This document shows, piece after piece, positions 6,778 through 28,957 of a DNA stretch of 32,000 bases. The translations under genes were made by a program, and so were the position numbers. How positions within the stretch are numbered: the stretch's first letter is position 1; each line of letters starts with the position of its first letter. Under the pieces are notes generated by a model. That model saw nothing but the letters and a program-made list of their open reading frames with translations. It was not told the origin of the DNA and did no database searches. Source of the stretch: an uncultured Planctomycetia bacterium (GTDB taxonomy: Bacteria > Omnitrophota > Gorgyraeia > Duberdicusellales > 4484-171); the NCBI GenBank assembly GCA_964536865.1, contig CAZHYN010000004.1, positions 30,001-62,000 of the forward strand, written 5' to 3'.

Positions 6778-7847
6778 CTTATTAGAAGGTAGATGCCCAA
6801 TATTAGAAAGATTATGTTAGGGATCCACATTCCTAAAGAGGAGACTACGATATTAGATTTCGCCAGAGTTTCTCCTAAGATTAAAAGGAGATAGTAACTA
6901 ACGGCAAGAAGAAAAGTTACCCCAAAGTTAATCGATTTCTCTCTATGCCGCACCCGTGTTGCTATTCCAAACCCCAAGATTACGAATATTAAAGGTGAAA
7001 GGGAGATGCTAATTCTTTTGTGAAATTCTATAATGAGGTCTTTGGGGAAAATTTTAAGATTTCTGAGATAAGCTATTTTTTCTTTTAGCTCTTCCATAGT
7101 TAAATCTTTCGGTTTCTTTTTAATTGGAGTTTTAATTTTCTCTTCTATAGGTATATCCATAAAAAATATTTTGAAACTTAATCTGTAGAGTTCGTTTCTG
7201 TCCTTAGGATTTATTTCATCCCTAAATCCATTTTCTAATTTCAATTTTAAAATTTTTTCCTGAGAGATGAATTCTCCTTTTTTAGCAAAAGTAATCTGCT
7301 TCAAACTATCATTTTCTATCTGATAAATAAAGATATTCTTCATTTTATTTCCTTTAACATCTCCCACATAAAGGATGTAGTTACCAAAATTTTCCAAAAA
7401 TATGCCTGGTTCAATCACTGCAGAGATATTCTTTCTATATAAGTTTTTTATGCGTCGATAATAGCGATAGTGAAAATTAGGGAGTATCTTATCATTGAGA
7501 ATGAAGAGGCACGCAGAGAAGATGACCCCTAAGATTAGGAATATTCTTAAGATTCTTGCTAAGGATATTCCTGCCACATGCATAGCTACAATCTCATTAT
7601 CAGCAATTAGCCTTCCTAAGGAGAGGAGGATTCCTAAGAGGAGAGATAGAGGTATAGTAAATCTCAAAAGATAAGGAACAAAGAAAAGAAAAAGTGCTGT
7701 TGCATCTTTTAAAGCTACGCCCTTCCTTATTACCATATCAGAAAGCTTTATAAGGTTACCCAAGACCATTACCATAGTAATGGAAAGAAGAGAAAAGGTG
7801 AATGCGGAAAAAAAATCTTTGAGGATATAGTTTCTGAGAATTCTCAT
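6765..7847 (-). CDS. lptF: LPS export ABC permease, LptF-like (YjgP/YjgQ family)
   Basis: Same architecture as its neighbour, and upstream member of the pair. 13-nt overlap with lptG. Confidence 0.7.
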   Translation of the reverse strand: MRILRNYILKDFFSAFTFSLLSITMVMVLGNLIKLSDMVIRKGVALKDATALFLFFVPYLLRFTIPLSLLLGILLSLGRLIADNEIVAMHVAGISLARILRIFLILGVIFSACLFILNDKILPNFHYRYYRRIKNLYRKNISAVIEPGIFLENFGNYILYVGDVKGNKMKNIFIYQIENDSLKQITFAKKGEFISQEKILKLKLENGFRDEINPKDRNELYRLSFKIFFMDIPIEEKIKTPIKKKPKDLTMEELKEKIAYLRNLKIFPKDLIIEFHKRISISLSPLIFVILGFGIATRVRHREKSINFGVTFLLAVSYYLLLILGETLAKSNIVVSSLGMWIPNIIFLILGIYLLIRCTF

Positions 7848-8554
7848 CGTACTCTAGCTAAGGTTATAACGGTAATAGATGAGGCTCCTTTTTCTTTCAG
7901 TACCTTACTGCACTCCGAGACAGTAGCTTTTGTAGTTACTACATCATCAACTAATATTATATTTTTCCCTGTAAGGTCGCCTTGAGCATAAAATTTCCCT
8001 TTTATATTTATGATTCTTTCTCGGAAGTTAAATTGAGTTTGTGTTTTGTAGTATTTTGTGCATATAAGAGTATTTTTGCTGTGGGGAATATTCAGAGAGA
8101 GAGATAACTCCTCAGCTAGAAGTTGAGATTGATTATATCCCTTTTCTCTTATCCGGAGAGGGTGAGAGGGTACGTTTACTATAAGGTTATAGGGGATAAA
8201 ATCAAAGCCTATTCTTTTTAGATGAGTTACCATCAGGGAAGTAAAGAACTTTTTTAAGAAGGCATACTCTTTATATTTAAAAAGGTGAATAAGAGAGCTC
8301 AAGGGATTTTGATAAAGAGCTACACTTATAAGCTGGTCATAAAAGAAATATTTATTTCTACAGTTTCTACATAAGTTCGTTTCTGGATTTACAGGAAGGG
8401 AGCACATTTTACATAGGGGAGGAGTTAAAAAGACTATTTTTTCAAAGCATGACTGGCAGAGAATTCCTTCTTTTATTTTTCTTTCACATATAAAACATAC
8501 AGAAGGAAAGAAGATTCCTTTTAGAGTTTCCCACCAAGAGTTACTTCCTTTCAT
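7844..8554 (-). CDS. comF: ComF-family protein (Cys-rich zinc finger plus phosphoribosyltransferase domain)
   Basis: N-terminal CxxC...CxxC...CxxC...CxxC and C-terminal PRTase motif IILVDDVVTTKATV. 4-nt overlap with lptF. Confidence 0.8.
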   Translation of the reverse strand: MKGSNSWWETLKGIFFPSVCFICERKIKEGILCQSCFEKIVFLTPPLCKMCSLPVNPETNLCRNCRNKYFFYDQLISVALYQNPLSSLIHLFKYKEYAFLKKFFTSLMVTHLKRIGFDFIPYNLIVNVPSHPLRIREKGYNQSQLLAEELSLSLNIPHSKNTLICTKYYKTQTQFNFRERIINIKGKFYAQGDLTGKNIILVDDVVTTKATVSECSKVLKEKGASSITVITLARVR

Positions 8555-9424: not shown

Positions 9425-11788
9425 ATGAAATTTTTCAAGGATAAAGATTTTCTCTTCCCTTTAATAATTTGGTTTATAATTATTTTCTGGTATTTAATCT
9501 TTGCGTATAGTTTTTTTTACCCTTTTCGTATTCGTCTACAGGATAAACTGAATTGCCAGGCATTTTATGTATTTTCTCATCCTCCTTCCTCTGTAAACAA
9601 AGTAGTAATTGTAGCTATTGACTCAGCTTCACGCCAGTATCTTCAGCTTAAATGGCCATGGCCAAGGAGGATTACCGCTCGTCTTCTTCGTAACATTATG
9701 GAGTTCTCTCCCAAAGTTATAGGATTGGACATTATCTTTGCGGGTAAATCCTCTTCCGAAGATGATGAAGAGTTGCTCAGTGTGTTAAAAAACTATCCTC
9801 ATACAGTATTAGCGTATACTCTATCTGAAAAAAGCTGCGAATATCCCTGGGAAGGATTTAAAAGAGTGGCTCCTTCTTTAGGATTCATAAATAAGCCAGG
9901 AGAGAAAGATAGGGTAGTGAGAAGTATCCGTACCTTCTATATAGATAGAGAATGGAGGACGCATTACTCTTTAGATACCCAGATTTTAATTCACTATTTT
10001 AATATTAAAAAAGAAGATATTAAGGTTGAGCTGGCTAAAGGAATTTTCTTAGGAGAGAGACTTTTTGTGCCTTCATCAGGGGGAATAACTCCTCTTAATT
10101 ACTTGGCCCATCCTAGTGATTTTATCACCGTCCCTGCTTTTTTGGTGTTAAATAAGAAAGTCGACTCCGATATATTTAAAGATAAAATTGTCCTTGTAGG
10201 TGCTACCGACCCTTTGATTCATGATGTTTGCTCTACGCCCATAGGAGTTTTCCCAGGAGTAACAGTCATAGCTAACTCCTTGGTAATGATGTTAAGTGGA
10301 CGTTTCCTCTACTATCTTCCTTTAGGAGTAACTGTTCTTCTTTCCTTGGGTGTAGGTATTGGAATTATGATGATTAATAAGAAATTTTCTTTGAGTTTTT
10401 CTTCGCTAATTACTTTTGTAATTTTAATTTTTTCTTATTTTTTACTTCTCTACTTAAGGGCAAAAGATATTCAGATTGACTACTTTACTTTTTTCTTTCT
10501 AGGAGTTTCTGCTTATTTGGTTCCCAATGTATACAAGTATAGCTATGCCATATATATGGGCACTACACTCAAGAACCTGGCTATAAGAGATCCTCTTACA
10601 GGATTCTACACCTTCCGTTACTTTTCCTTAAAAATTGAGGAGGCATTGAAGGAGAAATCAAAAAGTATAGGATTAGTTATCATTATGTTTTCTAATTATA
10701 AAAAGCTTTCTCTAAAGTTAAGTTTTGAGCACTTGAAAAGACTGGTTAAGCTACTTTCTAATTTTCTTCAGGTGAGTGTCTCTAAGGAATTTAAGCGGTT
10801 CTTCTTCTCCCGTATTTCTGAAGATTCAATAGCAATAGCTCTTTTAGAAGAAGATAGGGAAAAGATAGAAAAATTTTTAAAAATTATGTTAGAGGAGTCC
10901 AAGCATAAAGAGTTTAAGGTGGAAGATTATTCTGTAAAAGTCTTTTTTAGAGGAGTGATATTCTACAAGAGGAAAGGGATTCGCCTGAGCAGAGAAGTTT
11001 TGCTTTCTAAAATAGAGAGTTTCTTGAGAGAATTCCGCAAAAAGAGTGATGAACTTGCTATTTTGGAATTAGAAGAAAGTAAGGAAGAGACAAGGGATAC
11101 TCTTTTGCCATGGGAAAGTTGGGATTTTTTGATTACTGATCTGGAGGAGAGAAATAAAGAATTAGAGAGGGCATTGAAAGAGACTCTCGATACCAAAAGA
11201 GAGACAGAAGAAGCATATTTTGGGCTAATTTATTCTCTTGTCAAAGCGTTGGAGGAAAAGGATACTTATACTCAAGGACATTCGGAGAGAGTGGCTAACT
11301 ATGCTAAAGCTATCGCTGAAGAAGTGGGTTTAGACGAGGAGGAGTGTGAGTTAATTTACAAAGCAGGACTTTTACATGATATAGGCAAAATTGGCATTCC
11401 TGATTATATTCTCCATAAAAAGAAAGAGCTTACCTCCCAGGAAAGGGAGTTTATAAGAAAACACGAAATAATGAGTGTAGAAATACTTAGGCCTATCAAA
11501 GCCTTCCACCGGTTGCTTCCTATAATTTTGCATCATCATGAGCGTTTCGATGGTACCGGTTACCCTTATGGTTTGAGTGGAAATATGATTCCTCGTGGTG
11601 CTCAAATTTTGGCAGTGGCAGATGCTTTTGATGCTGTAACCTGTGGTAGGGGATATAAGAAAGGAATAAGTTTTGAGGAGGCGATTAGAGAATTAGAGAA
11701 TAATAGTGGTACACAATTTAATCCTGTTTATGTTGAGGCACTGAAGAAGGTAATTAACAGGTCTTTTAAGAATGAAGATTTTTCCTAA
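9425..11788 (+). CDS. membrane sensor: CHASE2 domain, TM segments, degenerate GGDEF and HD-GYP phosphodiesterase domain
   Basis: VVIVAIDSASRQYL..WPWPRR (CHASE2). RDPLTGFYTFRYF starts a GGDEF fold, but SEDSI replaces GGDEF. HSERVANYA, LLHDIGKIGIPD and HHERFDGTGYP mark HD-GYP. Confidence 0.85.
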   Translation: MKFFKDKDFLFPLIIWFIIIFWYLIFAYSFFYPFRIRLQDKLNCQAFYVFSHPPSSVNKVVIVAIDSASRQYLQLKWPWPRRITARLLRNIMEFSPKVIGLDIIFAGKSSSEDDEELLSVLKNYPHTVLAYTLSEKSCEYPWEGFKRVAPSLGFINKPGEKDRVVRSIRTFYIDREWRTHYSLDTQILIHYFNIKKEDIKVELAKGIFLGERLFVPSSGGITPLNYLAHPSDFITVPAFLVLNKKVDSDIFKDKIVLVGATDPLIHDVCSTPIGVFPGVTVIANSLVMMLSGRFLYYLPLGVTVLLSLGVGIGIMMINKKFSLSFSSLITFVILIFSYFLLLYLRAKDIQIDYFTFFFLGVSAYLVPNVYKYSYAIYMGTTLKNLAIRDPLTGFYTFRYFSLKIEEALKEKSKSIGLVIIMFSNYKKLSLKLSFEHLKRLVKLLSNFLQVSVSKEFKRFFFSRISEDSIAIALLEEDREKIEKFLKIMLEESKHKEFKVEDYSVKVFFRGVIFYKRKGIRLSREVLLSKIESFLREFRKKSDELAILELEESKEETRDTLLPWESWDFLITDLEERNKELERALKETLDTKRETEEAYFGLIYSLVKALEEKDTYTQGHSERVANYAKAIAEEVGLDEEECELIYKAGLLHDIGKIGIPDYILHKKKELTSQEREFIRKHEIMSVEILRPIKAFHRLLPIILHHHERFDGTGYPYGLSGNMIPRGAQILAVADAFDAVTCGRGYKKGISFEEAIRELENNSGTQFNPVYVEALKKVINRSFKNEDFS

Positions 11789-12380
11789 GACTTTCTTTCT
11801 TTTTTTCTTCCTTCCTTCGTTAATTTTTGGATGCAGTTATCCAATTAAAAACTTAGATTCTCCAGGAGAGATAATAATATGTTTTGGAGATAGTATAACC
11901 CGGACAGAGGGAATTCCTTTAGAGAAAACCTACCCTGCAATTCTAAGTGAACTTTTACATAGAGAAGTTATAAATGCCGGTGTTTCTGGTGATACAACTG
12001 CCACTGCTCTAAGAAGATTAGAGAGAGATGTTTTAAGGAAGAATCCCTACTTGGTTATCGTGGAGTTAGGAGGCAATGATTTTTTAACTGGGATCTCTAA
12101 AGAAATCACTTTAAGGAACTTGGAAGAGATAATCGTTAAGATTCAAGAAGTGAAAGCTATAGTTGTTCTTTGCGATATAAGCTGTGGTTTCATCCTCTCA
12201 GGGTATAGGAAAGATTTTTACCAGTTGGCTAAGAAGACAGGTGCCATTTTCGTTTCTCAACTACTGGAGGGAATCTTAGATAATCCTTCTGCAAAACAGG
12301 ATTATATCCATCCCAATGTTGAAGGTCATAGACTTATCGCTCAAAAAATCTACCAAGTGATAAAGCCCTACCTCAAATAA
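11772..12380 (+). CDS. SGNH/GDSL-family hydrolase lipoprotein (TesA/arylesterase-like)
   Basis: Lipobox LIFGC. SGNH blocks FGDSIT, GVSGDTT, ELGGNDF and DYIHPNVEGH. Confidence 0.8.
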   Translation: MKIFPKTFFLFFFLPSLIFGCSYPIKNLDSPGEIIICFGDSITRTEGIPLEKTYPAILSELLHREVINAGVSGDTTATALRRLERDVLRKNPYLVIVELGGNDFLTGISKEITLRNLEEIIVKIQEVKAIVVLCDISCGFILSGYRKDFYQLAKKTGAIFVSQLLEGILDNPSAKQDYIHPNVEGHRLIAQKIYQVIKPYLK

Positions 12381-12455
12381 TTAAGGTAAATGTCGGACAG
12401 CAGACTTCTAATAGTTTCCCTTGATTTTAGTTATAAATCTCCAGTTCAAAGAAAA

Positions 12456-12497
12456 AGTTAATGAATGTGAGGTTAAACCATGCCGAGGGCGGGAGTC
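12456..12497 (-). repeat. duplicate of the tRNA-Leu 3' end (17 nt, positions 57-73) plus 25 nt of its 3' flank
   Basis: 42 nt match 12807-12848 with one mismatch (AGTTAATGAATGTGAG[G/A]TTAAACCATGCCGAGGGCGGGAGTC on the + strand). Confidence 0.9.
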
Positions 12498-12536
12498 AAG
12501 GCACTGAGTGCTTCGCACTATTTTAACCAGTGCCTT
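12498..12536. other. bipartite stem-loop module W abutting a tRNA-Leu 3' fragment
   Basis: Outer stem AAGGCACTG/CAGTGCCTT (9 bp). Inner hairpin AGTGC-TTC-GCACT next to the fragment-proximal strand. 8 unpaired nt (ATTTTAAC). Confidence 0.7.
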
Positions 12537-12619
12537 CATAGGGACTCTGTCCACTTGAGGCTCGGCTCATAGGAAAAAATCACAGAAAATAACTTCGCCT
12601 CGCTGTCACCCTGAAGTAT
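12533..12619 (-). repeat. about 87-nt segment homologous to 13398-13482, in inverted orientation
   Basis: Minus strand reads ATACTTCAGGGTGACAGCGAGGCG...GGACAGAGTCCCTATGAAGG. Shared blocks with the partner are ATACT, GGGTGACAGC, CAGAG and CTATGA. Confidence 0.6.
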
Positions 12620-12707
12620 TATCAAAGAAGATATTGTTAATAATTATTTTTAGAAGGTATTTAAAAAGAATAATGTAGACCCCAATTCTGACTTTAAAAA
12701 CAAAAAG

Positions 12708-12725
12708 TGCCGAGGGCGGGAGTCG
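12708..12725 (-). repeat. second isolated copy of the tRNA-Leu 3' end (positions 56-73)
   Basis: TGCCGAGGGCGGGAGTCG is identical to 12832-12849. On the minus strand it is followed by CTTTTTGTTTTT. Confidence 0.9.
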
Positions 12726-12726
12726 T

Positions 12727-12761
12727 AACAAATTCGCCAAAGGCGATTTCCCTTATTTGTT
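12727..12761. other. bipartite stem-loop module Y abutting a tRNA-Leu 3' fragment
   Basis: Outer stem AACAAAT/ATTTGTT (7 bp). Inner hairpin TCGCC-AAA-GGCGA next to the fragment-proximal strand. 8 unpaired nt (TTTCCCTT). Confidence 0.7.
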
Positions 12762-12831
12762 CCGACAATACTTTCGTTTCAGAGTTAACTTCTAGCTTAA
12801 AAAAGAAGTTAATGAATGTGAGATTAAACCA

Positions 12832-12915
12832 TGCCGAGGGCGGGAGTCGAACCCGCACAGAGTTACCTCTACCGGTTTTTGAGACCGACGCGTCTGCCAA
12901 TTCCGCCACCTCGGC
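12832..12915 (-). tRNA. tRNA-Leu (anticodon CAA), class II with long variable arm, no encoded CCA
   Basis: Minus strand: GCCGAGG TG GCGGAATTGGCAGACGC G TCGGT CTCAAAA ACCGG TAGAGGTAACTCTGT GCGGG TTCGACT CCCGC CCTCGGC A. All stems pair and the anticodon loop is CU-CAA-AA. Confidence 0.93.
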
Positions 12916-12990
12916 ATTTACTTTATATTATTATCCTACTCCTATTAGTCTTGCTCCTTAACAACTTCTCTCTTCTATTAACTACACGGG

Positions 12991-13033
12991 AACAACTAAA
13001 TTGAGCTTCGCTGTAATAACAGCGAAAGTTGTT
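12991..13033. other. bipartite stem-loop module X abutting the tRNA-Leu 5' fragment
   Basis: Outer stem AACAACT/AGTTGTT (7 bp). Inner hairpin TTCGCTGT-AATA-ACAGCGAA next to the fragment-proximal strand. 9 unpaired nt (AAATTGAGC). Confidence 0.7.
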
Positions 13034-13034
13034 A

Positions 13035-13081
13035 CCGCCACCTCGGCATTTACTTTATATTATTATCCTACTCCTATTAGT
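13035..13081 (-). repeat. duplicate of tRNA-Leu positions 1-13 plus 34 nt of its upstream flank
   Basis: 47 nt identical to 12903-12949 (CCGCCACCTCGGCATTTACTTTATATTATTATCCTACTCCTATTAGT on the + strand). Confidence 0.92.
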
Positions 13082-13200
13082 TCTGTCTATAGGATTTTTT
13101 CTATTAACTAATAATAACTACTAAATTAGTCTTTACCTCTTGACGGAGAAGACTATTTTTTCTTGGTCTCTATTTCTTTATTTGTTCCGGGAACTTTAAA

Positions 13201-13229
13201 ATCTTAGCATTAGCAAAATTCTTTGTCAA
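13201..13229 (-). promoter_or_regulatory. candidate sigma70 promoter facing the tRNA-Leu locus
   Basis: Minus strand: TTGACA (13229-13224), 17 nt, TAAGAT (13206-13201). Confidence 0.45.
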
Positions 13230-13258
13230 TTGACAATTTTTCTGTTAGATGATATATT
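13230..13258 (+). promoter_or_regulatory. near-consensus sigma70 promoter facing the tRNA-Ala array
   Basis: TTGACA (13230-13235), 17 nt, TATATT (13253-13258). The -35 is the right half of the palindrome TTGTCAATTGACAA. Confidence 0.6.
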
Positions 13259-13310
13259 TTAGTTTAAAGTTTCTCCCTAAAGTAGACAGAGCATATAGAT
13301 AGATGAGAGA

Positions 13311-13350
13311 GGCCGTAGTTTCCGCCAAAGGCGGACCCACTTATGAGGGG
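13311..13350 (+). repeat. degenerate tRNA-Ala 5' fragment (GGCCGTAGTT) followed by a 30-nt twin-hairpin element copy
   Basis: GGCCGTAGTT, then TCCGCCAAAGGCGGA, then CCCACTTATGAGGGG. The second hairpin has lost one base pair relative to the other copies. Confidence 0.75.
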
Positions 13351-13397
13351 CGATCCTTGATGGGCCATTTAAAAATAAATAAATTTCTTCTTTGGTC

Positions 13398-13482
13398 ATA
13401 CTCTAGGGGTGACAGCAAGCCGTGTTTAACTACCTCGGATTTACTTATAGGCTTGCGTCAGAGGGGCAGAGCCCCTATGAGG
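13398..13482 (+). repeat. about 85-nt segment homologous to 12533-12619 (inverted partner)
   Basis: ATACTCTAGGGGTGACAGCAAGCCG...GGCTTGCGTCAGAGGGGCAGAGCCCCTATGAGG. It contains stem GCAAGCC/GGCTTGC and hairpin GGGGC-AGA-GCCCC. Confidence 0.6.
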
Positions 13483-13495
13483 AGCGTAAGCGACA

Positions 13496-13547
13496 GGGCC
13501 GTAGTTTCCGCCAAAGGCGGACCCGCTTATGAGCGGGCAGCAGGGAG
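13496..13547 (+). pseudogene. truncated tRNA-Ala 5' fragment (positions 2-22) with the 31-nt twin-hairpin insert between nt 12 and 13
   Basis: GGGCCGTAGTT[TCCGCCAAAGGCGGACCCGCTTATGAGCGGG]CAGCAGGGAG. Identity to the tRNA stops after G22. Confidence 0.85.
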
Positions 13548-13548
13548 T

Positions 13549-13594
13549 AAGTTGTCTGCAACGTTAAGTTGCAGTATTCTTAAATATACAACTT
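13549..13594. other. bipartite stem-loop module S1 abutting the tRNA-Ala 5' fragment
   Basis: Outer stem AAGTTGT/ACAACTT (7 bp). Inner hairpin CTGCAAC-GTTAA-GTTGCAG next to the fragment-proximal strand. 13 unpaired nt. Confidence 0.7.
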
Positions 13595-13658
13595 CCTCCA
13601 TTGTTTATGATGTTAAAGATAGGCTGTCTCTTTAAAATAGAAGCTAAAGAAAAGTGAT

Positions 13659-13734
13659 GGGGCCGTAGTTCAGCAGGGAGAACGCTACGCTGGCAGCGTA
13701 GAGGTCAGGGGTTCAAATCCCCTCGGCTCCACCA
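13659..13734 (+). tRNA. tRNA-Ala (anticodon GGC), intact, CCA encoded
   Basis: GGGGCCG TA GTTC AGCAGGGA GAAC G CTACG CTGGCAG CGTAG AGGTC AGGGG TTCAAAT CCCCT CGGCTCC A CCA. The G3:U70 alanine identity pair is present. Confidence 0.95.
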
Positions 13735-13819
13735 GTTAGATTGTTAAATTCTCATTTTTAGGTGATATAAATGTTTTTATTAATAGATGGTAATTTTTAA
13801 GGTTTTCCAGTAAAATTGC

Positions 13820-13872
13820 GGGGCCGTAGTTTCCGCCAAAGGCGGACCCGCTTATGAGCGGGCAGCAGGGAG
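13820..13872 (+). pseudogene. second truncated tRNA-Ala 5' fragment (positions 1-22) with the 31-nt insert between nt 12 and 13
   Basis: GGGGCCGTAGTT[31-nt insert 13832-13862]CAGCAGGGAG. It is a copy of 13496-13547 offset by 325 bp. Confidence 0.85.
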
Positions 13873-13873
13873 T

Positions 13874-13919
13874 AAGTTGTCTGCAACGTTAAGTTGCAGT
13901 ATTCTTAAATATACAACTT
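13874..13919. other. bipartite stem-loop module S2 (copy of S1)
   Basis: Identical to 13549-13594, offset by 325 bp. Confidence 0.7.
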
Positions 13920-13983
13920 CCTCCATTGTTTATGATGTTAAAGATAGGCTGTCTCTTTAAAATAGAAGCTAAAGAAAAGAGAT

Positions 13984-14090
13984 GGGGCCGTAGTTCAGCA
14001 GGGAGAACGCTACGCTGGCAGCGTAGAGGTCACGGGTTTCCGCCAGAGGCGGACCCGCCTTTAGGCGGGCAAATCCCGTCGGCTCCACCA
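13984..14090 (+). tRNA. tRNA-Ala (GGC) copy interrupted in the T-loop by a 31-nt insert (intron-bearing gene or recent pseudogene)
   Basis: It matches 13659-13734 at all positions except a compensatory T-stem pair (ACGGG/CCCGT) and the insert at 14039-14069 between T55 and C56. CCA is encoded. Confidence 0.7.
14039..14069 (+). repeat. 31-nt twin GC-hairpin element, T-loop copy
   Basis: TCCGCC-AGA-GGCGGA followed by CCCGCC-TTTA-GGCGGG. Same length and architecture as 13507-13537 and 13832-13862. Confidence 0.85.
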
Positions 14091-14107
14091 GCCAATTCCT
14101 TAAAGAG

Positions 14108-14965
14108 TTGTTAAGGTTAGGTGTTCAAGTTTCAATTGCTGGTGGTATCCATTTCTCCGTAGATAGAGCGTTGAAATTAGGGTGTAATGCTATGCAGATA
14201 TTCTCTCGTAATCCACGGAAGTTTAGAAAGAGTTTTCTAAAAGTGGAAGATATAGAACTTTTTAAAAAAAAGATCAGTGGTTCTTCTATCTTTCCCCTGG
14301 TTATTCATACTCCTTATACCTTAAATTTAGCTACCCCTCAAAAATTCCTTCATTGGATTACTACTAAGGAGTTTATCGCTGATTTAATAGAGGCAGACAA
14401 GTTAGGCGCTCACTACTTAGTTACTCATCCAGGCTGTTATAAAGGAACTACTAAAGAGGGAGGGTTAAATCAAGTAGTAAAGGGTTTAAGGAGAATATTG
14501 AAAAATACTCAAGAGGTAAAGACAGAGATTCTTTTAGAAAATACTGCAGGGGGTGGCACGTGTCTGGGATCTAAAATTTCTCAGTATAGATTCATATTGG
14601 AAAAGTTGGATTTCACTCCCCGGATAGGTATATGTTTAGATACTGCTCATGCATGGTGTGCAGGTTATAGGATAAATACTCACCAAGGTTTAGAAGAACT
14701 ACTTCAAGAGATAGAAAAAGAGGTAGGTATCCAAAGATTAAAACTTATTCACCTTAATGATACCCTTGAAGAATTGGGTTCAAAGAAAGACCGTCATTAT
14801 CATATTGGGGAAGGTATGATTGGGAGAGATGGTTTTTCTTTGATAGTTAACCATCCTTTTCTTAAGAACTTACCTTTTATTTTAGAGACACCTAAAAAGA
14901 ACGATAGGGATGATATAAAGAATTTAAATACTGTAAGAGCACTTTATAGAGATGAATTACTCTAA
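14108..14965 (+). CDS. nfo: endonuclease IV (AP endonuclease, xylose-isomerase-like TIM barrel)
   Basis: LGVQVSIAGG, HTPYTLNLA, LVTHPG, ILLENTAG, GICLDTAHAW and IHLNDT. TTG start lies 17 nt after the tRNA CCA. Confidence 0.85.
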   Translation: MLRLGVQVSIAGGIHFSVDRALKLGCNAMQIFSRNPRKFRKSFLKVEDIELFKKKISGSSIFPLVIHTPYTLNLATPQKFLHWITTKEFIADLIEADKLGAHYLVTHPGCYKGTTKEGGLNQVVKGLRRILKNTQEVKTEILLENTAGGGTCLGSKISQYRFILEKLDFTPRIGICLDTAHAWCAGYRINTHQGLEELLQEIEKEVGIQRLKLIHLNDTLEELGSKKDRHYHIGEGMIGRDGFSLIVNHPFLKNLPFILETPKKNDRDDIKNLNTVRALYRDELL

Positions 14966-17408
14966 AGAGATTGACAAAAAGTGGCAAGATTACTGGAAAG
15001 AGATTAGGCTTTTTAACGTTGATGTGAAAGATAAGTCAAAGCCCAAGTATTACTGCCTGGTGATGTTTCCTTATCCTTCCAGTGAGCTTCATGTAGGGCA
15101 TGCACGGAACTATATTATTGGCGATGCTGTAGCTCGGTATAAGATAATGCAGGGCTATAAAGTTTTGTCTCCTATGGGATGGGATGCTTTTGGATTGCCC
15201 GCAGAGAATCAGGCTATAAAACATAATATCCATCCTAAGAAGTGGACATTCGATAATATAAATCGGATTAAAGAGCAACTTAACAGTTGGGGCATTGGTT
15301 ACGATTGGGATAAAGAGGTAAATAGTTGCCTCCCTGAGTATTATAGATGGACACAGTGGATTTTTTTAAAACTTTACTCCCAGGGCTTGGCTTATAAGAA
15401 AGAAGCTTCGGTAAACTGGTGCCCCCATTGTTTAACTGTGTTAGCTAATGAGCAGGTAGTTGGAGGAAGGTGTGAGAGATGCTCTTCAGAAGTAGAGCAG
15501 AAAAAATTAAAACAATGGTTCTTTAAAATTACTGATTATGCCGAAAGACTCCTCAAGGATTTAGATTTATTAGAGGATTGGCCAGAGAGAGTTAAGATAA
15601 TGCAAAAGAATTGGATTGGTAGATCTGAGGGGGTAGAGATTTACTTTCCTTTGAAAGATACCCAGCTTAGGATTAACTGTTTTACTACCCGTGTTGATAC
15701 AATCTTTGGAGCTACGTTTTTAGCCTTAAGCTGGGATCATCCTTTTATAGAAGTTCTTCTTCACAATAACCCTAAAAGAGAGGCGATAGTTAACTTTATT
15801 GAGAAGATTAAAAATCAACCATACTCAATAAGACTTTTGGATAATTTTGAAAAAGAAGGCATTTTTACTGGTAAATTTGCTATTAATCCTATGACTAATA
15901 AAGAGATTCCTATCTGGGTTGCTAATTATATCCTTTCTGAATATGGTACAGGAGCAATAATGTGTGTGCCTGCTCACGATAAGAGGGATTTTGATTTTGC
16001 AAAGAAATACGGACTTCCCATTGTGGAGGTAATTAGAGATTTTCAGAAGGAGAGGGAAGTTACTTTGGAGGAAGCTTATGAAGGGGAAGGTGTTTTGGTT
16101 AATTCAGGAGAATTTAGTGGGCTTAGTTCTCAACAAGCTAAAGAGAAAATTGCTGATTTTATGGAGGAAAACGATATAGGTAAAAGAAAAATTAATTATA
16201 AATTGAGAGATTGGCTTATATCTCGACAGCGTTACTGGGGCACCCCCATTCCTATTGTTTACTGTGATAAGTGTGGAGAGGTTCCTGTTCCTGAGGAACA
16301 ACTTCCTGTCCTCCTTCCGGAGAAGGTTAAATTTCTTCCTACCGGGCAGTCACCTCTAACTTATGTGGAAGATTTTATTAAGACTAGTTGTCCTCGTTGT
16401 GGAGGGCCTGCGCTTAGAGAAACTGATACTATGGACACATTCGTGGATTCCAGTTGGTATTATCTCAGATACATCTCTTCCAAAGATGAAAAGTCTCCTT
16501 TTATTAGGGAAGATGTAAATTACTGGTTACCTGTAGACCAATACATTGGAGGAGTAGAACATGCTATTCTACATCTTATGTATGCACGTTTTATCAATAA
16601 GTTCTTTTATGATTTAGGTCTAATAAATTTTAAAGAACCGTTCAGGCGTCTATTTACTCAGGGAATGATTGTAAAAGATGGAGCAAAAATGTCCAAATCT
16701 AAAGGGAATGTGGTTTCCCCCGATTATATTATAGATACCTATGGCGCTGATACTATGAGGCTTTACATCCTTTTTATTGGTCCTCCCCAGAAAGACGCAG
16801 AGTGGCATGATGAGGGGCTTTTAGGCTGTTTTCGATTTATAGGTAGAGTGTTAAGACTTCTGGATTTATTTTCTCAGTATAAAGAAATTGATGTTGATAA
16901 AGATAATCCCCATCAAAAGTTACTCCTTAGAAAAATGCATCACACAATTAAGGAAGTTACCCAAGATTTGGAAGGCAATTTTCAATTTAATACTGCTATA
17001 AGTAAGATTATGGAATTAGTGAATCAGATATACAAGTCTTTAGATACCGCACAAATCAGTAAAGAGTTATTTCGTCAGGCAATAGATACCGTATTTTTGC
17101 TTTTGGCTCCTTTTACTCCCCATATAAGCGAAGAGGCAAATAAAGCTTTAGGCAATTCCGGTTCTATTTTTCATAGAAATTGGCCTATTTATGAGCCTAA
17201 GTATCTAGAACAGGAGGAGACAGAGATTGCTATTCTTATCGATGGAAAATTGAGAGCTCACCTTAAGATAAATACTACCTGGAGTGAAAAAAAAGTAGTA
17301 GAGGAAGCCCTCTCTTTAGAGAAAGTAAAAAATTATCTTAAAGGCACCCTTCCTAAAAAAACCTTCTACGTAAGAAATAAAGTTCTTAATCTCGTTACTA
17401 AGAAATGA
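14952..17408 (+). CDS. leuS: leucyl-tRNA synthetase
   Basis: HIGH motif (HVGHARNY), KMSKS motif (KMSKSKGN), CP1 editing insert and zinc-binding CxxC pairs. 818 aa. Confidence 0.95.
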   Translation: MNYSKEIDKKWQDYWKEIRLFNVDVKDKSKPKYYCLVMFPYPSSELHVGHARNYIIGDAVARYKIMQGYKVLSPMGWDAFGLPAENQAIKHNIHPKKWTFDNINRIKEQLNSWGIGYDWDKEVNSCLPEYYRWTQWIFLKLYSQGLAYKKEASVNWCPHCLTVLANEQVVGGRCERCSSEVEQKKLKQWFFKITDYAERLLKDLDLLEDWPERVKIMQKNWIGRSEGVEIYFPLKDTQLRINCFTTRVDTIFGATFLALSWDHPFIEVLLHNNPKREAIVNFIEKIKNQPYSIRLLDNFEKEGIFTGKFAINPMTNKEIPIWVANYILSEYGTGAIMCVPAHDKRDFDFAKKYGLPIVEVIRDFQKEREVTLEEAYEGEGVLVNSGEFSGLSSQQAKEKIADFMEENDIGKRKINYKLRDWLISRQRYWGTPIPIVYCDKCGEVPVPEEQLPVLLPEKVKFLPTGQSPLTYVEDFIKTSCPRCGGPALRETDTMDTFVDSSWYYLRYISSKDEKSPFIREDVNYWLPVDQYIGGVEHAILHLMYARFINKFFYDLGLINFKEPFRRLFTQGMIVKDGAKMSKSKGNVVSPDYIIDTYGADTMRLYILFIGPPQKDAEWHDEGLLGCFRFIGRVLRLLDLFSQYKEIDVDKDNPHQKLLLRKMHHTIKEVTQDLEGNFQFNTAISKIMELVNQIYKSLDTAQISKELFRQAIDTVFLLLAPFTPHISEEANKALGNSGSIFHRNWPIYEPKYLEQEETEIAILIDGKLRAHLKINTTWSEKKVVEEALSLEKVKNYLKGTLPKKTFYVRNKVLNLVTKK

Positions 17409-17725
17409 TTCCCCTTACTTATAGAGAAAGGAAGATTCTTTTGTTAATAGGGGTTCTCCTCCTTTTAGGAGGGATACTAAGACTCTCTAAGATTAGCTAT
17501 CCTTCTTTTGAAGAAGAAAAGCCTACCTCTTTAAAGAAGGTTAATATAAACACTGCTACCTTAGAAGAATTAACTACCCTTCCCTATATAGGAGAAAAAA
17601 TCGCTCTCAGAATTATTAATCATCGCAAACTCCAAGGGGAGTTTAAAAGCTTAGAGGACCTTCTAAAGATTAAAGGGATAGGTCATAAAAAATTAGAGCT
17701 GATTAAGGATTATGTAATCTTTTAA
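17405..17725 (+). CDS. comEA: ComEA-family helix-hairpin-helix DNA-binding protein
   Basis: N-terminal TM anchor, then VNINTATLEELTTLPYIGEKIALRII..R....FKSLEDLLKIKGIG.KKLE. Confidence 0.8.
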   Translation: MIPLTYRERKILLLIGVLLLLGGILRLSKISYPSFEEEKPTSLKKVNINTATLEELTTLPYIGEKIALRIINHRKLQGEFKSLEDLLKIKGIGHKKLELIKDYVIF

Positions 17726-17737
17726 GACTTTAAGAGT

Positions 17738-19222
17738 TTGCATAATTTCTTCCTCTTTATTTCTTTAATTGTAGGTATCCTTATAGGGCGTGTTGCTAAA
17801 GATTTTTCCCTCTTCATTGTTTTCTTAGCAATCCTTTTCTTCTTTTCTTCTTATTTTTTCCACAGGAAAAATAAACCGATTGCCTGGGGAATTTGTTTTT
17901 TCTTATTTTTTACAGTTTTAGGTACTCTTTGGAGTTTACCTAAATATTTTACTACTCCTGAGGAAGCGTTAGCAAAAAGTAAGAGATTTCATCTCAAGGT
18001 AATATCCTTTCCTAAGAGAGTTTCAATCAAACAAATTTACTTTGCCCAGATATTTAGAGTAGATGACTCTCCCTTTTATCTTAAGACAAGAGTTGTGGAT
18101 TTCTCTCCTCTATCGAAGGAATACTTAAGTAAATATCAAGTGGAAGGAAAACTTTCTCTCCATATCTATAAGGGGAGGAAATTTTATACTCTCTGGATAA
18201 GTAAAGATACTTTCCAACTTAAGTGTAAAGATAAATGGATTGATAATCTTTTAAAAAAGGTAACGTTTTTTTTGACTAACCTCTATAAGTCTAAATTATC
18301 TGCCCAAGCATATTCTTTTCTCTCTGCAACATTTTTAGGAAGGAGAGAATTACTTCCAAGGAAAGTAAAGAAAATTTTTGCTGCTTCAGGAACCTCTCAT
18401 CTTCTAGCTATAAGTGGATTACATATAGGGATGACAGCTTTGGTATTAATCTACCTTTTAAGATTTTTTAAACTAATCTTTCCTAAAAGGATAGTTATTT
18501 CTATTCTTTTTCTCTTTTTCTACACATTTCTGGTGGGGGCAAGAGCCTCCACTCTAAGGGCTGCTATTATGTATACAATTTTTGGTATAAGTTTTCTTTT
18601 GCAGAGAAAGACTCATCCTCTTAACTCTTTAGGTCTATCTGGAATAATTTCTTTATTCATAAATCCTTTATGGGTTTTTGATGTAGGATTTCAGCTCTCC
18701 TTTATCTCAGTATTGGGAATTATTTTAGGATATAGAACTTTTAGAGTAAGTATATCTTCATCAACTTTTCTGGTTACTTACTTTAAAAACATTCTCTTTA
18801 CTTCTCTATTCGTTTTACTATCTATTGGGGGATTGACTTCTTATTACTTTGGAAAGGTTTATATCTCCAGTATATTGACTAACTGGATTCTAATTCCTCT
18901 TTTTGTATTTATTATCTTTGTTAATTTTCTGTTCATAATTTTATCTTTTTTCCCCTTCTTAGGAGAGTGTATGGGCTCTTTAGTTTCTTTCCTCATCTTT
19001 GGTTTCATAAAGATTGCAAGTTTTCTTTCTTGGTTAAGTAGGATTAATTTGGACTTTTATTTTTCTAGGGAAGGGGTCATCGCCTACTATTTAATTTTAA
19101 CCTCCTTAGGAAGTTTGATGTATAGATTTAGAGGAAAGTTTGGAAAGATTAATTCTGTTTTCAAAAGGCCAGCTTTATGTATAATAAATATAATATGGAA
19201 AAAATTCATAAATCTAAAGTAA
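17738..19222 (+). CDS. comEC: ComEC/Rec2-family DNA uptake channel protein lacking the C-terminal metallo-beta-lactamase domain
   Basis: N-terminal DUF4131-like region and the competence-domain signature SGTSHLLAISGLHIG. Polytopic membrane protein of 494 aa. TTG start. Confidence 0.8.
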   Translation: MHNFFLFISLIVGILIGRVAKDFSLFIVFLAILFFFSSYFFHRKNKPIAWGICFFLFFTVLGTLWSLPKYFTTPEEALAKSKRFHLKVISFPKRVSIKQIYFAQIFRVDDSPFYLKTRVVDFSPLSKEYLSKYQVEGKLSLHIYKGRKFYTLWISKDTFQLKCKDKWIDNLLKKVTFFLTNLYKSKLSAQAYSFLSATFLGRRELLPRKVKKIFAASGTSHLLAISGLHIGMTALVLIYLLRFFKLIFPKRIVISILFLFFYTFLVGARASTLRAAIMYTIFGISFLLQRKTHPLNSLGLSGIISLFINPLWVFDVGFQLSFISVLGIILGYRTFRVSISSSTFLVTYFKNILFTSLFVLLSIGGLTSYYFGKVYISSILTNWILIPLFVFIIFVNFLFIILSFFPFLGECMGSLVSFLIFGFIKIASFLSWLSRINLDFYFSREGVIAYYLILTSLGSLMYRFRGKFGKINSVFKRPALCIINIIWKKFINLK

Positions 19223-19929: not shown

Positions 19930-22257
19930 ATGGAAGAGTATTATCGTTCCTACTGCGATGATGATCTCTGGTTAATTAGAGAAACTGTATGGGCCCCTTC
20001 TCTTCAAAATATCCGTGAATCCCAGTTTACCTTGGGCAATGGTTACTTTGCTAGTCGAGGAGTTTTAGAGGAGATCCCTTACCAGGCTATGTCTGGCACC
20101 TACATTGCAGGAATTTACGATGGAATTGGTTCTCAGGTTAAGGAGTTAGTAAATTTCCCTAATCCCTTCAATTTCCGTTTTACAGTGAAGGGAGAAAAAG
20201 TTGGTTTAGCAACAATGAGGAATGTATTTCATAAGCGTATCTTAAATACTAAGAAGGCAGTCTTGGTAAGGCATACACTTTTTGAGAATGTAAGAAGACA
20301 CAGATTCGATTACCAGTCTATAAGGTTCGTTTCTCTAGATAATAAGAATTTAGGAGTCATGCAGATTATCTTTACTCCCCTAGATAAAAATTGCCTTTTA
20401 GATATCTATACAGGAATTGATACTTCAGTTTTTAATGTAGGTACAGTTACTGAAGGTAAGAAAAGACACTTTAAAGTTAAGGAAGCAGGTCAGTTCAAAG
20501 ACGCAGGTTATTTGGCAGTTGTAACTTTAGAGAAGAAGTATGTAGTGATTTACTGGGCAGGATTTTACTATGAAGTTGATGGGAAAAAGATACCTGCTTC
20601 TGACAATGTTTTTCAACTCGAACTTAAGAAAGACCAGAGTGTGAAATTTACTAAATTATTTTTTATAAAACATTTTCCTTATCGAGAAGATATCCACCTT
20701 TACAAAGAAAGGACATTTGTTAGATTTTCTCAAGCCTTCCGCACGGATTTTAATAAGCTTATCACTCAACATATAAAGAAGTGGGAGAGTGTATGGAGAA
20801 AGGTAGATATACTCATTGAGGGGACAGCTAATCTGCAGCAAAATTTAAGATTCAACCTCTATCATCTTCTCATAGCTGCTCCCCAAGATAGAGGATTTTC
20901 CAGTATTGGTGCTCGAACTTTAAGTGGAGAAGGTTACCGGGGACATGTCTTTTGGGATACTGAGTTATTTGTGATGCCTTTCTATCTTTATACTCTCCCT
21001 CAAGTTGCCAAAAATATTCTTCTCTATCGCTACCGAAGGTTACCTAAAGCTAGGGAGTTAGCCAAGAATGAAGGATATAATGGAGCTAAATTTCCTTGGG
21101 AATCTGCAGATACGGGAGAGGAAGAAACACCTGCCTGGGCAAGAGATTTCGATAGTTCCATTATAAAGATTCAAACCCATCTTTACGAACATCATATAAC
21201 TGCGGATGTAGCTTATGCTTTCTATAGATACTACTTAGCTACTGGTGACGAAGAGTTCTTAAAAAAATATGCCTGCGAAGTTATTTTTGAGACAGCACGT
21301 TTCTGGGCTTCTCGAGTTTTTTACAATAGAACTACTAAGAGATACGAGATAAGAGGGATAATTGGGCCAGATGAGTTTCACATTAATGTGAATAACAATG
21401 CTTATACTAATGGCTTGGTACAGTGGATTCTTTCTTTAGGTCATACTCTCTTTTTCTACCTTAAAAAGAGAGCGCCATCATCTTTCTCTCAACTTAAGGA
21501 GAAATTAGGACTTAGGGAGAAGGAAGTAAAGGAGTGGGTAAAGATCGCTAAGAAGCTTAAGTTAAATATAGATAAGAAGAGTAGAGTTATTGAACAATTT
21601 GATGGATATTTTAAATTGAGAGAGATAGAACTTGAGAAAACCGATGAGAATGGCATTCCTCTTCTTCCTAAGTACCTTAAAGCTAAAGACTTAAGGTATA
21701 CAAAACTCATAAAACAGGCTGACGTTTTGATGCTTCTCTATATCTTAACGAATAAGTTTAGTTCCTCCGTAATAAGAGCCAACTATAATTACTACATAAA
21801 AAGGACTCTTCATAAATCCTCTCTCAGTGCTCCTATTCATGCCATAATGGCAGTAAAGTGTGAAGACATGCACCGGGCTTATAATCTTTTTAATGTTTCT
21901 CTCCGTACTGATATAAGCAATCTTTACGGTAATACTCAGGAAGGTATTCATGCGGCAAGCTTAGGAGGAACGTGGCAAGCGGTAGTTTTTGGTTTTTGTG
22001 GGATAGAATTTATAGATGATATAATTAGTGTTACCCCTAAATTTCCTCGTACCTGGCAAAAGGTGAAATTCTCTCTCACTTATCGAGGCGATAGAGTAGA
22101 ATTTGATTTGACAAATGAGGAGGTGAGAGTAAAAATAGTATCTAAAAAGAAGAAAAAAACGAAAGTGGTAGTATTTGGTAAACCTTATTCTATTTTGACT
22201 AATAAAAAGTATAAGTTTTTCAAAAAAGGTGTTAAGAAGGAGGAGTACTATTACTAA
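19930..22257 (+). CDS. glycoside hydrolase family 65 protein (disaccharide phosphorylase-like), paralog 1
   Basis: N-terminal SQFTLGNGYFASRG, GEGYRGHVFWDTELF, FPWESADTGEE and the catalytic-acid region GPDEFHINVNNNAYTN. Confidence 0.85.
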   Translation: MEEYYRSYCDDDLWLIRETVWAPSLQNIRESQFTLGNGYFASRGVLEEIPYQAMSGTYIAGIYDGIGSQVKELVNFPNPFNFRFTVKGEKVGLATMRNVFHKRILNTKKAVLVRHTLFENVRRHRFDYQSIRFVSLDNKNLGVMQIIFTPLDKNCLLDIYTGIDTSVFNVGTVTEGKKRHFKVKEAGQFKDAGYLAVVTLEKKYVVIYWAGFYYEVDGKKIPASDNVFQLELKKDQSVKFTKLFFIKHFPYREDIHLYKERTFVRFSQAFRTDFNKLITQHIKKWESVWRKVDILIEGTANLQQNLRFNLYHLLIAAPQDRGFSSIGARTLSGEGYRGHVFWDTELFVMPFYLYTLPQVAKNILLYRYRRLPKARELAKNEGYNGAKFPWESADTGEEETPAWARDFDSSIIKIQTHLYEHHITADVAYAFYRYYLATGDEEFLKKYACEVIFETARFWASRVFYNRTTKRYEIRGIIGPDEFHINVNNNAYTNGLVQWILSLGHTLFFYLKKRAPSSFSQLKEKLGLREKEVKEWVKIAKKLKLNIDKKSRVIEQFDGYFKLREIELEKTDENGIPLLPKYLKAKDLRYTKLIKQADVLMLLYILTNKFSSSVIRANYNYYIKRTLHKSSLSAPIHAIMAVKCEDMHRAYNLFNVSLRTDISNLYGNTQEGIHAASLGGTWQAVVFGFCGIEFIDDIISVTPKFPRTWQKVKFSLTYRGDRVEFDLTNEEVRVKIVSKKKKKTKVVVFGKPYSILTNKKYKFFKKGVKKEEYYY

Positions 22258-23452: not shown

Positions 23453-23461
23453 AAGTTAGAT

Positions 23462-28946: not shown

Positions 28947-28957
28947 ATAGTTCATAA

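Follow-up and report, generated by a model that had tools for sequence, protein, structure and literature searches.

How pieces of tRNA genes, capped by hairpins, come to lie beside intact copies of the same genes is the question raised by a 1.7-kb spacer in the genome of an uncultured bacterium of the Omnitrophota. The spacer runs from a GDSL hydrolase gene (11772-12380) to nfo (14108-14965) in a stretch of 32,000 nucleotides of contig CAZHYN010000004.1 (positions 30,001 to 62,000), which was analysed here at its full length and is referred to as the window. It holds tRNA-Leu and tRNA-Ala genes, fragments of their ends, and five hairpin modules named W, Y, X, S1, and S2. An original prediction, made from the letters alone, had proposed that every tRNA fragment abuts a bipartite stem-loop of conserved architecture but unrelated sequence, and had likened these modules to folded recombination sites. 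Analysis of the window and of related public loci, designated by L numbers, revealed an arrangement that resembles the trace left behind by an undescribed process of insertion or recombination guided by hairpins.

Hairpin modules at the tRNA fragments

The five modules were found where they had been placed, with the outer and inner stems that had been assigned to them. In each, an outer stem is stacked on an inner hairpin of 13 to 20 nucleotides (nt), and a one-sided bulge of 8 to 13 nt lies distal to the tRNA fragment. The modules measure 35 to 46 nt, or 45 to 56 nt with the extension described below. Module W (12498-12536, plus strand) combines the outer stem AAGGCACTG/CAGTGCCTT with the inner hairpin AGTGC-TTC-GCACT and an 8-nt bulge. 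Module Y (12727-12761) covers 12722-12766 of the plus strand when its extension is included. There, GTCG, the final 4 nt of the fragment as read on this strand, and a T linker precede the module, and a C linker and CGAC follow it. Module X (12991-13033; 12986-13038 with its extension) reads on the minus strand GCGG, T, AACAACT-TTCGCTGT-TATT-ACAGCGAA-GCTCAATTT-AGTTGTT, C, and CCGT. Module S1 (13549-13594; 13544-13599 with its extension, plus strand) is framed by GGAG and T on one side and by C and CTCC on the other. Its counterpart S2 (13874-13919) is part of a duplicate of a tRNA-Ala 5' fragment, a 31-nt double-hairpin element (DH), and the S module (13822-13924, plus strand; repeat D1, 99%), which also occurs in the independent contig L095.

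Folding of the modules as DNA gave energies of −7.4 to −12.1 kcal/mol and z scores of −3.9 to −6.3 (for W, −11.5 kcal/mol and −5.7), and none of 200 shuffled sequences equalled them. As RNA, four of the five modules were equally significant and Y was weaker, with 12 of 200 shuffles as good. All four extension pairs are formed in Y, and Y is identical in L005, the nearest public genome, whose nfo protein is 84% identical. A strict descriptor of the layout matched five times in 12381-14107, against a mean of 0.03 (maximum, 1) in dinucleotide shuffles, and twice in the remaining 30.3 kb of the window. When a looser descriptor was applied to 125.6 kb of related loci, 17 of its 114 matches adjoined tRNA fragments, against about 0.03 expected by our own estimate from the background density of matches. 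Two outcomes had been named as refuting the original prediction, equally good folds in shuffled sequence and a lack of enrichment beside tRNA-derived sequence; neither was obtained.

One account would be that such folds arise by chance in an AT-rich spacer, or that the assembly joined strain variants. In these genomes the loose descriptor does match at a density of about 0.45 per kb and strand, and public short-read contigs of the strain and its relatives break at the arrays, ending at about 12690 to 12711, 13839, and 14003 (L001 to L003 and L095 to L097). Against this stand the count in shuffles and the recurrence of W, Y, X, S, S2, and the DH-bearing tRNA in independent assemblies, by which chance and artefact are effectively refuted. 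Three independent contigs carry W with 100% identity, and a fourth (L003) has one additional T in it. Y, X, and S are present in L005, a Guaymas Basin Candidatus Omnitrophota metagenome-assembled genome (MAG), and X and S also in a contig from the Joint Genome Institute (L042), with single substitutions in S in both. S2 and the DH-interrupted tRNA-Ala are each found in three assemblies. Moreover, the units differ from one another in sequence, which rules against their invention by an assembler.

Several parts of the original prediction had to be narrowed. S1 and S2 carry the same sequence within a 218-nt, 99% identical tandem repeat (D1); they were copied by tandem duplication, and the modules therefore count as four independent ones, not five. 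The tRNA fragments and their spacing are as described, and most fragments are capped by a bipartite stem-loop, but the tRNA-Ala 5' fragment at 13311-13320 adjoins the 31-nt DH. The module sequences are largely unrelated, except that X and Y have 6 of 7 outer-stem bases in common and that Y resembles DH in its interior (77% identity; repeat D6). The bracketed segments, given as 81, 85, 111, and 210 nt, measured about 85, 105, 110, and 210 nt.

A common plan for the joints

Read with the tRNA piece on the 5' side, the joints follow a single order. A fragment ending in G is followed by one unpaired base, usually T, and by a stem of 7 to 9 bp that starts with A. Then come a directly stacked hairpin of 5 to 8 bp, a one-sided bulge of 7 to 14 nt, the closing strand of the stem, which ends in T, an invariant C, and finally 3 to 4 nt that can pair with the bases at the end of the fragment (GCGG/CCGY, GGAG/CTCC, GTCG/CGAC, or TTTG/CAAA). 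This extension of 3 to 4 bp into the tRNA fragment, across a 1-by-1 mismatch, is present in 14 of 15 scorable modules from four families and in 0 of 97 background hairpins; W is the sole module with just two of the four extension pairs. In the X family, 98.5% of the outer-stem cells are paired, and two of the pairs are compensatory.

The breaks in the tRNA sequences all lie in the D arm or T loop, at G^AA(C) or, as the opposite strand reads, (G)TT^C. Their positions are 55/56 in the T loop, 13/14 in tRNA-Leu, and 22/23 in tRNA-Ala. The plan of the 3' fragments is the exact reverse complement of that of the 5' fragments. The mirror-imaged plan is therefore a property of the DNA and not of the transcript, as would be expected of a DNA joint rather than of an RNA element. 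A further regularity that was considered, a TT in front of every inner hairpin, was dropped once the Y, S, W, and L007 modules had been inspected.

Conservation and copy number in related genomes

Partial tRNA copies are specific to a clade: 16 were found around 19 tRNAs in loci with an nfo identity of 58% or more to the query, versus 0 around 37 tRNAs in more distant loci. The new fragments in relatives adjoin a hairpin in every case save a truncated one in L009, mostly with the bipartite plan. Fragments of the tRNA-Ala 3' end that start at C56 stand behind bipartite hairpins in L007/L048, L047, and L006, and in L050 behind a hairpin cut by the start of the contig. In L051 the fragment begins one or two bases later, and the long stacked hairpin that precedes it lacks the one-sided bulge.

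The plan of the joint is shared at orthologous and nonorthologous joints in L005, L007, L008, L043, L045, L047, and L006. Architecture, not sequence, is retained among genomes whose spacers are randomised, and in more distant relatives nothing but the fragment, the fold, and the closing C is retained. The site orthologous to Y in L007 has a tRNA-Leu 3' fragment and the same plan with a different hairpin sequence; it is two compensatory pairs apart from Y of the window, and the inner hairpins are wholly different. The X orthologues of L005, L008, L043, and L045 show compensatory changes in the outer stem, and the paralogous L008 units differ by compensatory pairs in the inner stem.

The fragments were also observed to co-vary with the resident gene. 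In L043, where the flanks are not homologous, GCCGGGATGGCGG is present in both fragment and gene; L007 and L047 differ in a T-stem strand (CCCGT versus CCCCT), each with a match between fragment and gene; and L005 differs from the window by a D loop that is changed in both. Copy number changes as well. X-type units, which carry tRNA-Leu positions 1 to 13, number one in the window, two in L005 and L042, three in L008, and one each in L043 and L045. L046 has none and yet an identical tRNA-Leu and promoter, and it thus serves as an empty site. The distal units of the arrays are the more decayed ones.

Modules can also be lost. L009 (5788-5900) lacks a 55-nt piece that is present in L051 (515-690) and comprises the hairpin and most of the tRNA-Ala 3' fragment; this loss, between two CGGCT repeats, is an example of module removal by short-repeat deletion. 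The same two loci have, in the tRNA-Leu leader (L009 5290-5470 and L051 40-200), about five different GC-rich mini-hairpins, each followed by GAAATAT(A), and thus a small tandem array in which the stems vary and the tail is constant. Downstream of tRNA-Ala, L010 (5935-5975) and L052 (3870-3940) have tandem GTGCCCGCGAGGGTGCTT hairpin units that differ in copy number.

The 31-nt double-hairpin element

DH is a 31-nt sequence, TCCGCCAAAGGCGGA-CCCGCTTATGAGCGGG, with four copies in the window (13321-13351, 13507-13537, 13832-13862, and 14039-14069). These lie solely in tRNA-Ala-derived sequence and always follow TT, with one copy in each of three tRNA-Ala 5' fragments and one in the second tRNA-Ala gene. 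In that gene the element sits exactly between T55 and C56 without a target duplication; three assemblies have it and L005 lacks it. A related strain (L002/L003) has an additional DH variant of 30 to 31 nt at about 12557 (L002 1244-1273), after CTCTT and with compensatory stem changes, where the window has none. DH is a precise presence/absence polymorphism of 30 to 31 nt after TT at two sites, and it is therefore mobile, or was so recently.

The insertion site TT^C is common to DH and to the joints of the modules, and GTAG precedes DH only where the D arm of tRNA-Ala provides it. Taken together, the mirror symmetry of the plan, the break site shared with DH, the reach of 4 bp into the fragment, the change in copy number, and the match between fragments and genes point to a process at the level of DNA that is specified by the fold.

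Organization of the locus

The units are serially reiterated at about 105 to 230 bp, each consisting of one tRNA gene end and the outer flank of that end. A fixed unit length of about 132 bp, which was also considered, was weakened by the lengths of the independent families (119, 124, 130 to 133, 152, 162, and 227 bp).

On the tRNA-Leu side, the intact tRNA-Leu(CAA) gene occupies 12831-12916 of the minus strand (ARAGORN; Rfam, 57.3 bits). The outermost copy of its 3' end (12480-12497, positions about 57 to 73) lies, with a copy of the downstream flank, at 12440-12497 of the minus strand (repeat D5: 58 nt, 90% identical to 12791-12848), and it has two substitutions in the related strain (L002/L003). 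The second copy (12708-12725, minus strand; repeat D3) begins, according to the fragment mapping, at C56 in the T loop. Between them is the body of the W-Y unit (12537-12707). In it, about 12537-12660 is by local alignment an inverted homologue of 13365-13470, so that the trailer unit of tRNA-Leu and the leader of tRNA-Ala share about 125 nt of inverted homology. Both sides have a decayed DH-like hairpin, at about 12541-12560 and, as AGGGGC-AGA-GCCCCT, at 13463-13477.

The tRNA-Leu 5' end (positions 1 to 13) with 34 nt of upstream flank is found at 12903-12949 of the minus strand, the proximal copy of repeat D7, and is 100% identical to the displaced copy at 13035-13081 (minus strand), whose upstream flank includes a −10-like GATAAT. 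Beyond the displaced copy, a decayed distal X-type unit (13082-13170, minus strand) was recognised by alignment to the second X unit of L005; it reads AACTACT-AAATT followed by another hairpin (AGTCTT..AAGACT), and its tRNA fragment is gone.

On the tRNA-Ala side, 5' ends start at 13311, 13497, and 13822. The first (positions 1 to 12) adjoins its DH copy and then non-tRNA sequence (13311-13351, plus strand; repeat D2). The second (positions 1 to 22; 13497-13547, plus strand) is split by DH after GTAGTT. The intact tRNA-Ala(GGC) copy 1 (13659-13734, plus strand) was detected by ARAGORN and Rfam. Copy 2 (13984-14092, plus strand) scored 49.3 bits with the Rfam tRNA model despite its DH insert, and was overlooked by ARAGORN because its T loop holds this 31-nt insertion. 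The two copies differ by a compensatory T-stem pair (AGGGG/CCCCT in copy 1 versus ACGGG/CCCGT in copy 2). They belong to a 325-nt tandem duplication (13496-14092) of the 5' fragment, DH, S, and tRNA-Ala.

Between the two sides lies a bidirectional promoter (13201-13258) on the perfect palindrome TTGTCAATTGACAA, which consists of two back-to-back TTGACA −35 boxes and serves tRNA-Leu leftward and tRNA-Ala rightward. The palindrome is kept in L005, L007, L008, L009, L010, L043, L045, and L046, and the locus is syntenic across Omnitrophota, with tRNA-Leu and tRNA-Ala divergent from this conserved promoter. From the orientation of the promoter it follows that the 5'-type units fall within tRNA leaders, and its layout places the units, co-transcribed with the tRNAs, in leader and trailer.

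This layout brings up the possibility that the modules work as RNA in the pre-tRNA leader and trailer, as processing or stability signals, as decoys for RNase P or RNase Z, or as a source of spacer-derived small RNAs. Besides the position of 5'-type units in leaders and 3'-type units in trailers, this account can draw on the identity of the Y, X, and S units to those of L005 (95 to 97%, compared with about 87% for coding DNA) and on several G·U pairs on the tRNA-sense strand of 5'-type modules. We nevertheless consider it improbable. Reverse-complement plans give a different bulge side and different linker bases (U·C versus G·A), the wobble pair of L006 is on the antisense strand, and the linkers of L045 and of the second L008 unit pair solely on the other strand. 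Arrays may be 5'-only or 3'-only, so that pairing between leader and trailer is not general. The need for a tRNA end and its co-variation with the gene are left unexplained by a role in RNA. Moreover, Rfam returned only tRNAs, at the gathering score and up to E = 5, and matched no other family.

Two further readings do not apply. Intrinsic terminators, which are GC-rich hairpins with a U tract behind them on the transcribed strand, were rejected: a scan flagged only the inner hairpins of S and Y, the latter on both strands, leaving W and X unflagged, and part of the tail is itself paired, with the closing strand of the outer stem. In archaeal split or intron-containing tRNA genes, two halves together provide the sole copy of the tRNA, and complementarity of leader and trailer creates a bulge-helix-bulge motif. 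Here, intact genes are present and the host is a diderm bacterium (LptF/G; Omnitrophota); the modules are also self-complementary, with no complementarity between fragments.

The window as a whole has a low GC content (about 35%) and encodes housekeeping functions only, among them LptF/LptG, LeuRS, and ComEC, and a trehalose gene cluster. The latter is dense (19930-30818) and comprises two GH65 phosphorylases, an OtsA-like protein, a trehalose-phosphatase fusion, a TreT-like protein, GT4, and DUF5752. Genes for ComFC-like, ComEA-like, and ComEC proteins are located at 7844-8554 (minus strand) and 17405-19222 (plus strand). The Com genes suggest uptake of single-stranded DNA (ssDNA) by natural transformation, a possible supplier of the single-stranded substrates assumed by the explanation preferred below. 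Many metagenome loci begin a few hundred bases upstream of nfo. An exact protein look-up for strain variants, with nfo starting in either L or M and with two spurious open reading frames (ORFs), found none on record, and extension of the contig in search of more tRNA loci gave no tRNA in 21 kb.

Known systems and the origin of the modules

Direct repeats of a tRNA end that bracket a segment are a feature of integration at tRNA genes, and the units could be scars of classical integrase activity. Islands or phages of kb size would have entered the tRNA genes and accumulated in tandem, until deletions left only their att-proximal ends, with the hairpins as former arm sites or terminators. In an account of 2002 attributed to Williams, tRNA-targeting integrases reportedly have as their classical identity block the run from the T loop to the 3' end. 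The W and Y fragments extend from position 56/57 to the 3' end, as do those of L007 and L047 for tRNA-Ala. Tandem accretion is known for cis-mobilizable elements and for integrative and conjugative elements (CIME/ICE). Partial tRNA duplication by integrating elements is also a general source of tRNA gene fragments (PMC9897764). In islands of this kind, too, the repeats of the tRNA end bracket the insert, the gene is restored, and arrays can form (in part PMC9897764).

We regard an origin as integrase scars as quite improbable. No integrase or element gene is left at any of about 10 loci, and the brackets, of 85 to 210 nt, hold no genes and no kb-sized cargo. Independent families are of similar small size (119 to 162 bp), and units measure 105 to 230 bp. 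Unlike in islands, 5' ends are duplicated too, and duplications of a 5' end that carry the promoter flank are atypical. The palindrome adjoins and pairs with displaced fragments, a hairpin reaching into the fragment is not expected of arm sites or terminators, and the joint has an additional base inside the would-be overlap region. A scan of viral contigs for the diagnostic tRNA-Ala 3' joint A+CAAATCCC..CTCCA gave no match.

The original prediction had likened the modules to integron attC sites and to XerCD-used attP sites of phages. The analogy is partly supported in its logic; membership is not, as attC features are lacking, nothing dif-like was recognised at the modules, and no recombinase was found. 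In the attP sites of CTX-type ssDNA phages and in arrays of integrative mobile elements exploiting Xer (IMEX) at dif, a folded single-stranded site integrates, the target is regenerated, and tandem arrays form. The modules are alike in these respects, but their target is a tRNA gene and not dif, no XerCD-type half-sites were recognised, and phage genes are absent.

The attC sites of integrons are imperfect hairpins of 57 to 141 bp that are read by fold and not by sequence, with R boxes (RYYYAAC/GTTRRRY), an AAC triplet, extrahelical bases, and a spacer of 5 to 6 nt; in cassette arrays each stem is closed by the unit that follows, and the most recent arrival is the one beside the primary site (PMC5027507). 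The modules are likewise imperfect hairpins with conserved structure in the absence of conserved sequence, and unpaired features set their two strands apart. Just as the first bases of the neighbouring unit close the foot of the attC stem, the last 3 to 4 nt of the fragment close that of the modules, and units are stacked at one primary site with the oldest farthest out. AAC...GTT occurs at the stem only in the X, Y, and L050 families, whereas S and W have AAG and the L007 type has ATG. The differences are several. The four outer bases (GCGG, GGAG, GTCG, and TTTG) do not conform to RYYY, and the RYYYAAC/GTTRRRY boxes are absent. A 1-by-1 linker and a one-sided bulge of 7 to 14 nt take the place of extrahelical bases and of a central spacer of 5 to 6 nt, and the modules are shorter than attC sites. 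Integron cassettes carry ORFs and adjoin intI, attI, and Pc, but the units contain no ORFs, their primary site is a tRNA gene with a duplicated end, and no intI was found.

A second group, that of IS200/IS605 and repetitive extragenic palindromes (REP), also uses small imperfect palindromes as folded single strands, and the proteins that act on folded ssDNA read irregularities of the stem (PMC8266576). In the manner of this group, DH is inserted 3' of a short motif and has no target duplication, its 31 nt lying between TT and C where L005 is empty; for the bipartite modules, a single junction is interpretable for an insertion motif. IS608 picks its 4-nt target by pairing with a sequence of the element (PMC3201880, PMC5934647), and this guide is 5' of the hairpin foot (PMC3201880), whereas the 4-nt complement in the modules is 3' of the hairpin and merely lengthens the helix. 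REP/RAYT palindromes are dispersed, high-copy, and intergenic, and follow GTAG (PMC8266576). The modules obey no GTAG rule and are not dispersed high-copy repeats in the roughly 750 kb examined. Furthermore, the units carry a copy of the end of the target gene, and no Y1 HUH transposase gene (tnpA) is present in the 32-kb window. As the defining features of integrons and of IS200/IS605-REP are lacking, we file the modules under neither.

Our preferred reading, which we hold at somewhat short of an even chance, is that the modules are the joints of small gene-restoring insertions that were made or recombined on folded ssDNA by a trans-acting enzyme encoded elsewhere. What stands of the folded-recombination-site idea is the conserved fold, the compensatory stems, the stem completed by the fragment, the mirror plan, and the change in copy number. 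The anatomy of the modules, its departure from chance, its conservation, the change in copy number, and the presence or absence of DH are shown; an enzyme, a folded single strand, and an order of events are inferred. The modules are imperfect palindromes that mark the inner joint of reiterated units, and each unit behaves as a gene-restoring insertion or duplication, leaving the tRNA intact and a palindrome-capped copy of its end farther out. The enzyme, for which a HUH/Y1 transposase like those of IS200/IS605-REP or a tyrosine recombinase similar to that of integrons would be a candidate, would act on folded ssDNA, making or recombining the joints. The 4-nt extension would be a complement of the target borne by the element, and repeated events would push older units outward, where decay would follow.

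The most substantial alternative to joints made by an enzyme is a passive origin, which involves no dedicated enzyme or function. Here, tRNA genes and their flanks would duplicate in tandem, the spare copy would degenerate, and inverted repeats would be perfected or extended by intrastrand template switching, while gene conversion with the neighbouring gene would keep only the block outside the palindrome identical. Quasi-palindrome mutagenesis by template switching indeed makes or perfects inverted repeats from local sequence and gives apparent compensatory changes. The two tRNA-Ala genes result from the plain tandem duplication of 325 nt, with a decayed nfo start copied into the flank of the upstream gene, and the Y unit keeps a collinear remnant of the variable arm (14 of 15 matches, P = 0.03). 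Collinear tRNA pieces are suggestive in the interiors of the L008 units and of S: the X units of L008 contain GCGCGGTTGTTCCCGC, which resembles a T arm, and the tail CCTCATCA, whereas the interior of S resembles tRNA-Ala positions 23 to 38. Every palindrome is unique in sequence and confined to a single locus, and the lengths of the inner hairpins are near those of tRNA arms.

On balance, a passive origin appears unlikely. In whole-unit and local alignments compared with shuffles, the homology of unit interiors other than Y to the cognate tRNA was not significant (P = 0.19 to 0.99), and a reading of the units as full pseudo-tRNAs is accordingly not claimed. Templated extension of the arms would be expected to erase the 1-by-1 linker mismatch, yet this is retained between paired segments in every family. 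Independent breaks all at G^AA/TT^C, rather than scattered, are not predicted by quasi-palindrome mutagenesis, nor is a mirror plan at both gene ends. The co-variation of fragment and gene in L043 involves an identity block of 13 to 15 nt, which is short for homologous conversion, and the plan is kept over divergences at which spacers are randomised.

Several observations weigh against the preferred reading of enzyme-made joints on folded ssDNA. The variable-arm remnant of Y and the plain duplication of tRNA-Ala indicate that ordinary duplication operates at the locus, and template switching from arm to arm in palindromes can mimic compensatory change without selection. As originally noted, no recombinase is encoded in the 32-kb window; nor is a transposase, and neither was seen near the arrays. 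No module or DH has a second-locus copy in the approximately 750 kb examined, each module family being confined to a single locus, and no excised form or empty site was found within one population. Counts of wobble pairs and strand-specific energies single out no folded strand. The linker mismatch is not universal either, being C·C in L043 and A·C, which corresponds to a G·T pair on the opposite strand, in L045 and in units 2 and 3 of L008. Finally, the sample consists of two tRNA genes, tRNA-Leu and tRNA-Ala.

A bolder form of the preferred reading is that the units represent a new class of miniature gene-restoring cassettes in this Omnitrophota clade, which would enter tRNA genes at G^AAC/GTT^C in an integron-like manner, by means of a folded hairpin site whose stem the target completes, with DH as a minimal mobile relative. 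We consider this form doubtful.

Implications

If the origin were passive, the locus would be an ordinary though clean natural example of palindrome growth in pseudo-tRNA copies, and useful to annotators, who would otherwise label such pieces as tRNA genes or att sites. If the joints were made on folded ssDNA, they would represent a new class of target, the D arm and T loop of tRNA genes, and a new site architecture for recombination or transposition that depends on hairpins. In that case the target could be read from the 4-nt extension, which would be a testable and potentially programmable rule. The arrays explain why tRNA loci break metagenome assemblies in Omnitrophota, and they show that essential single-copy tRNA genes tolerate repeated invasion.

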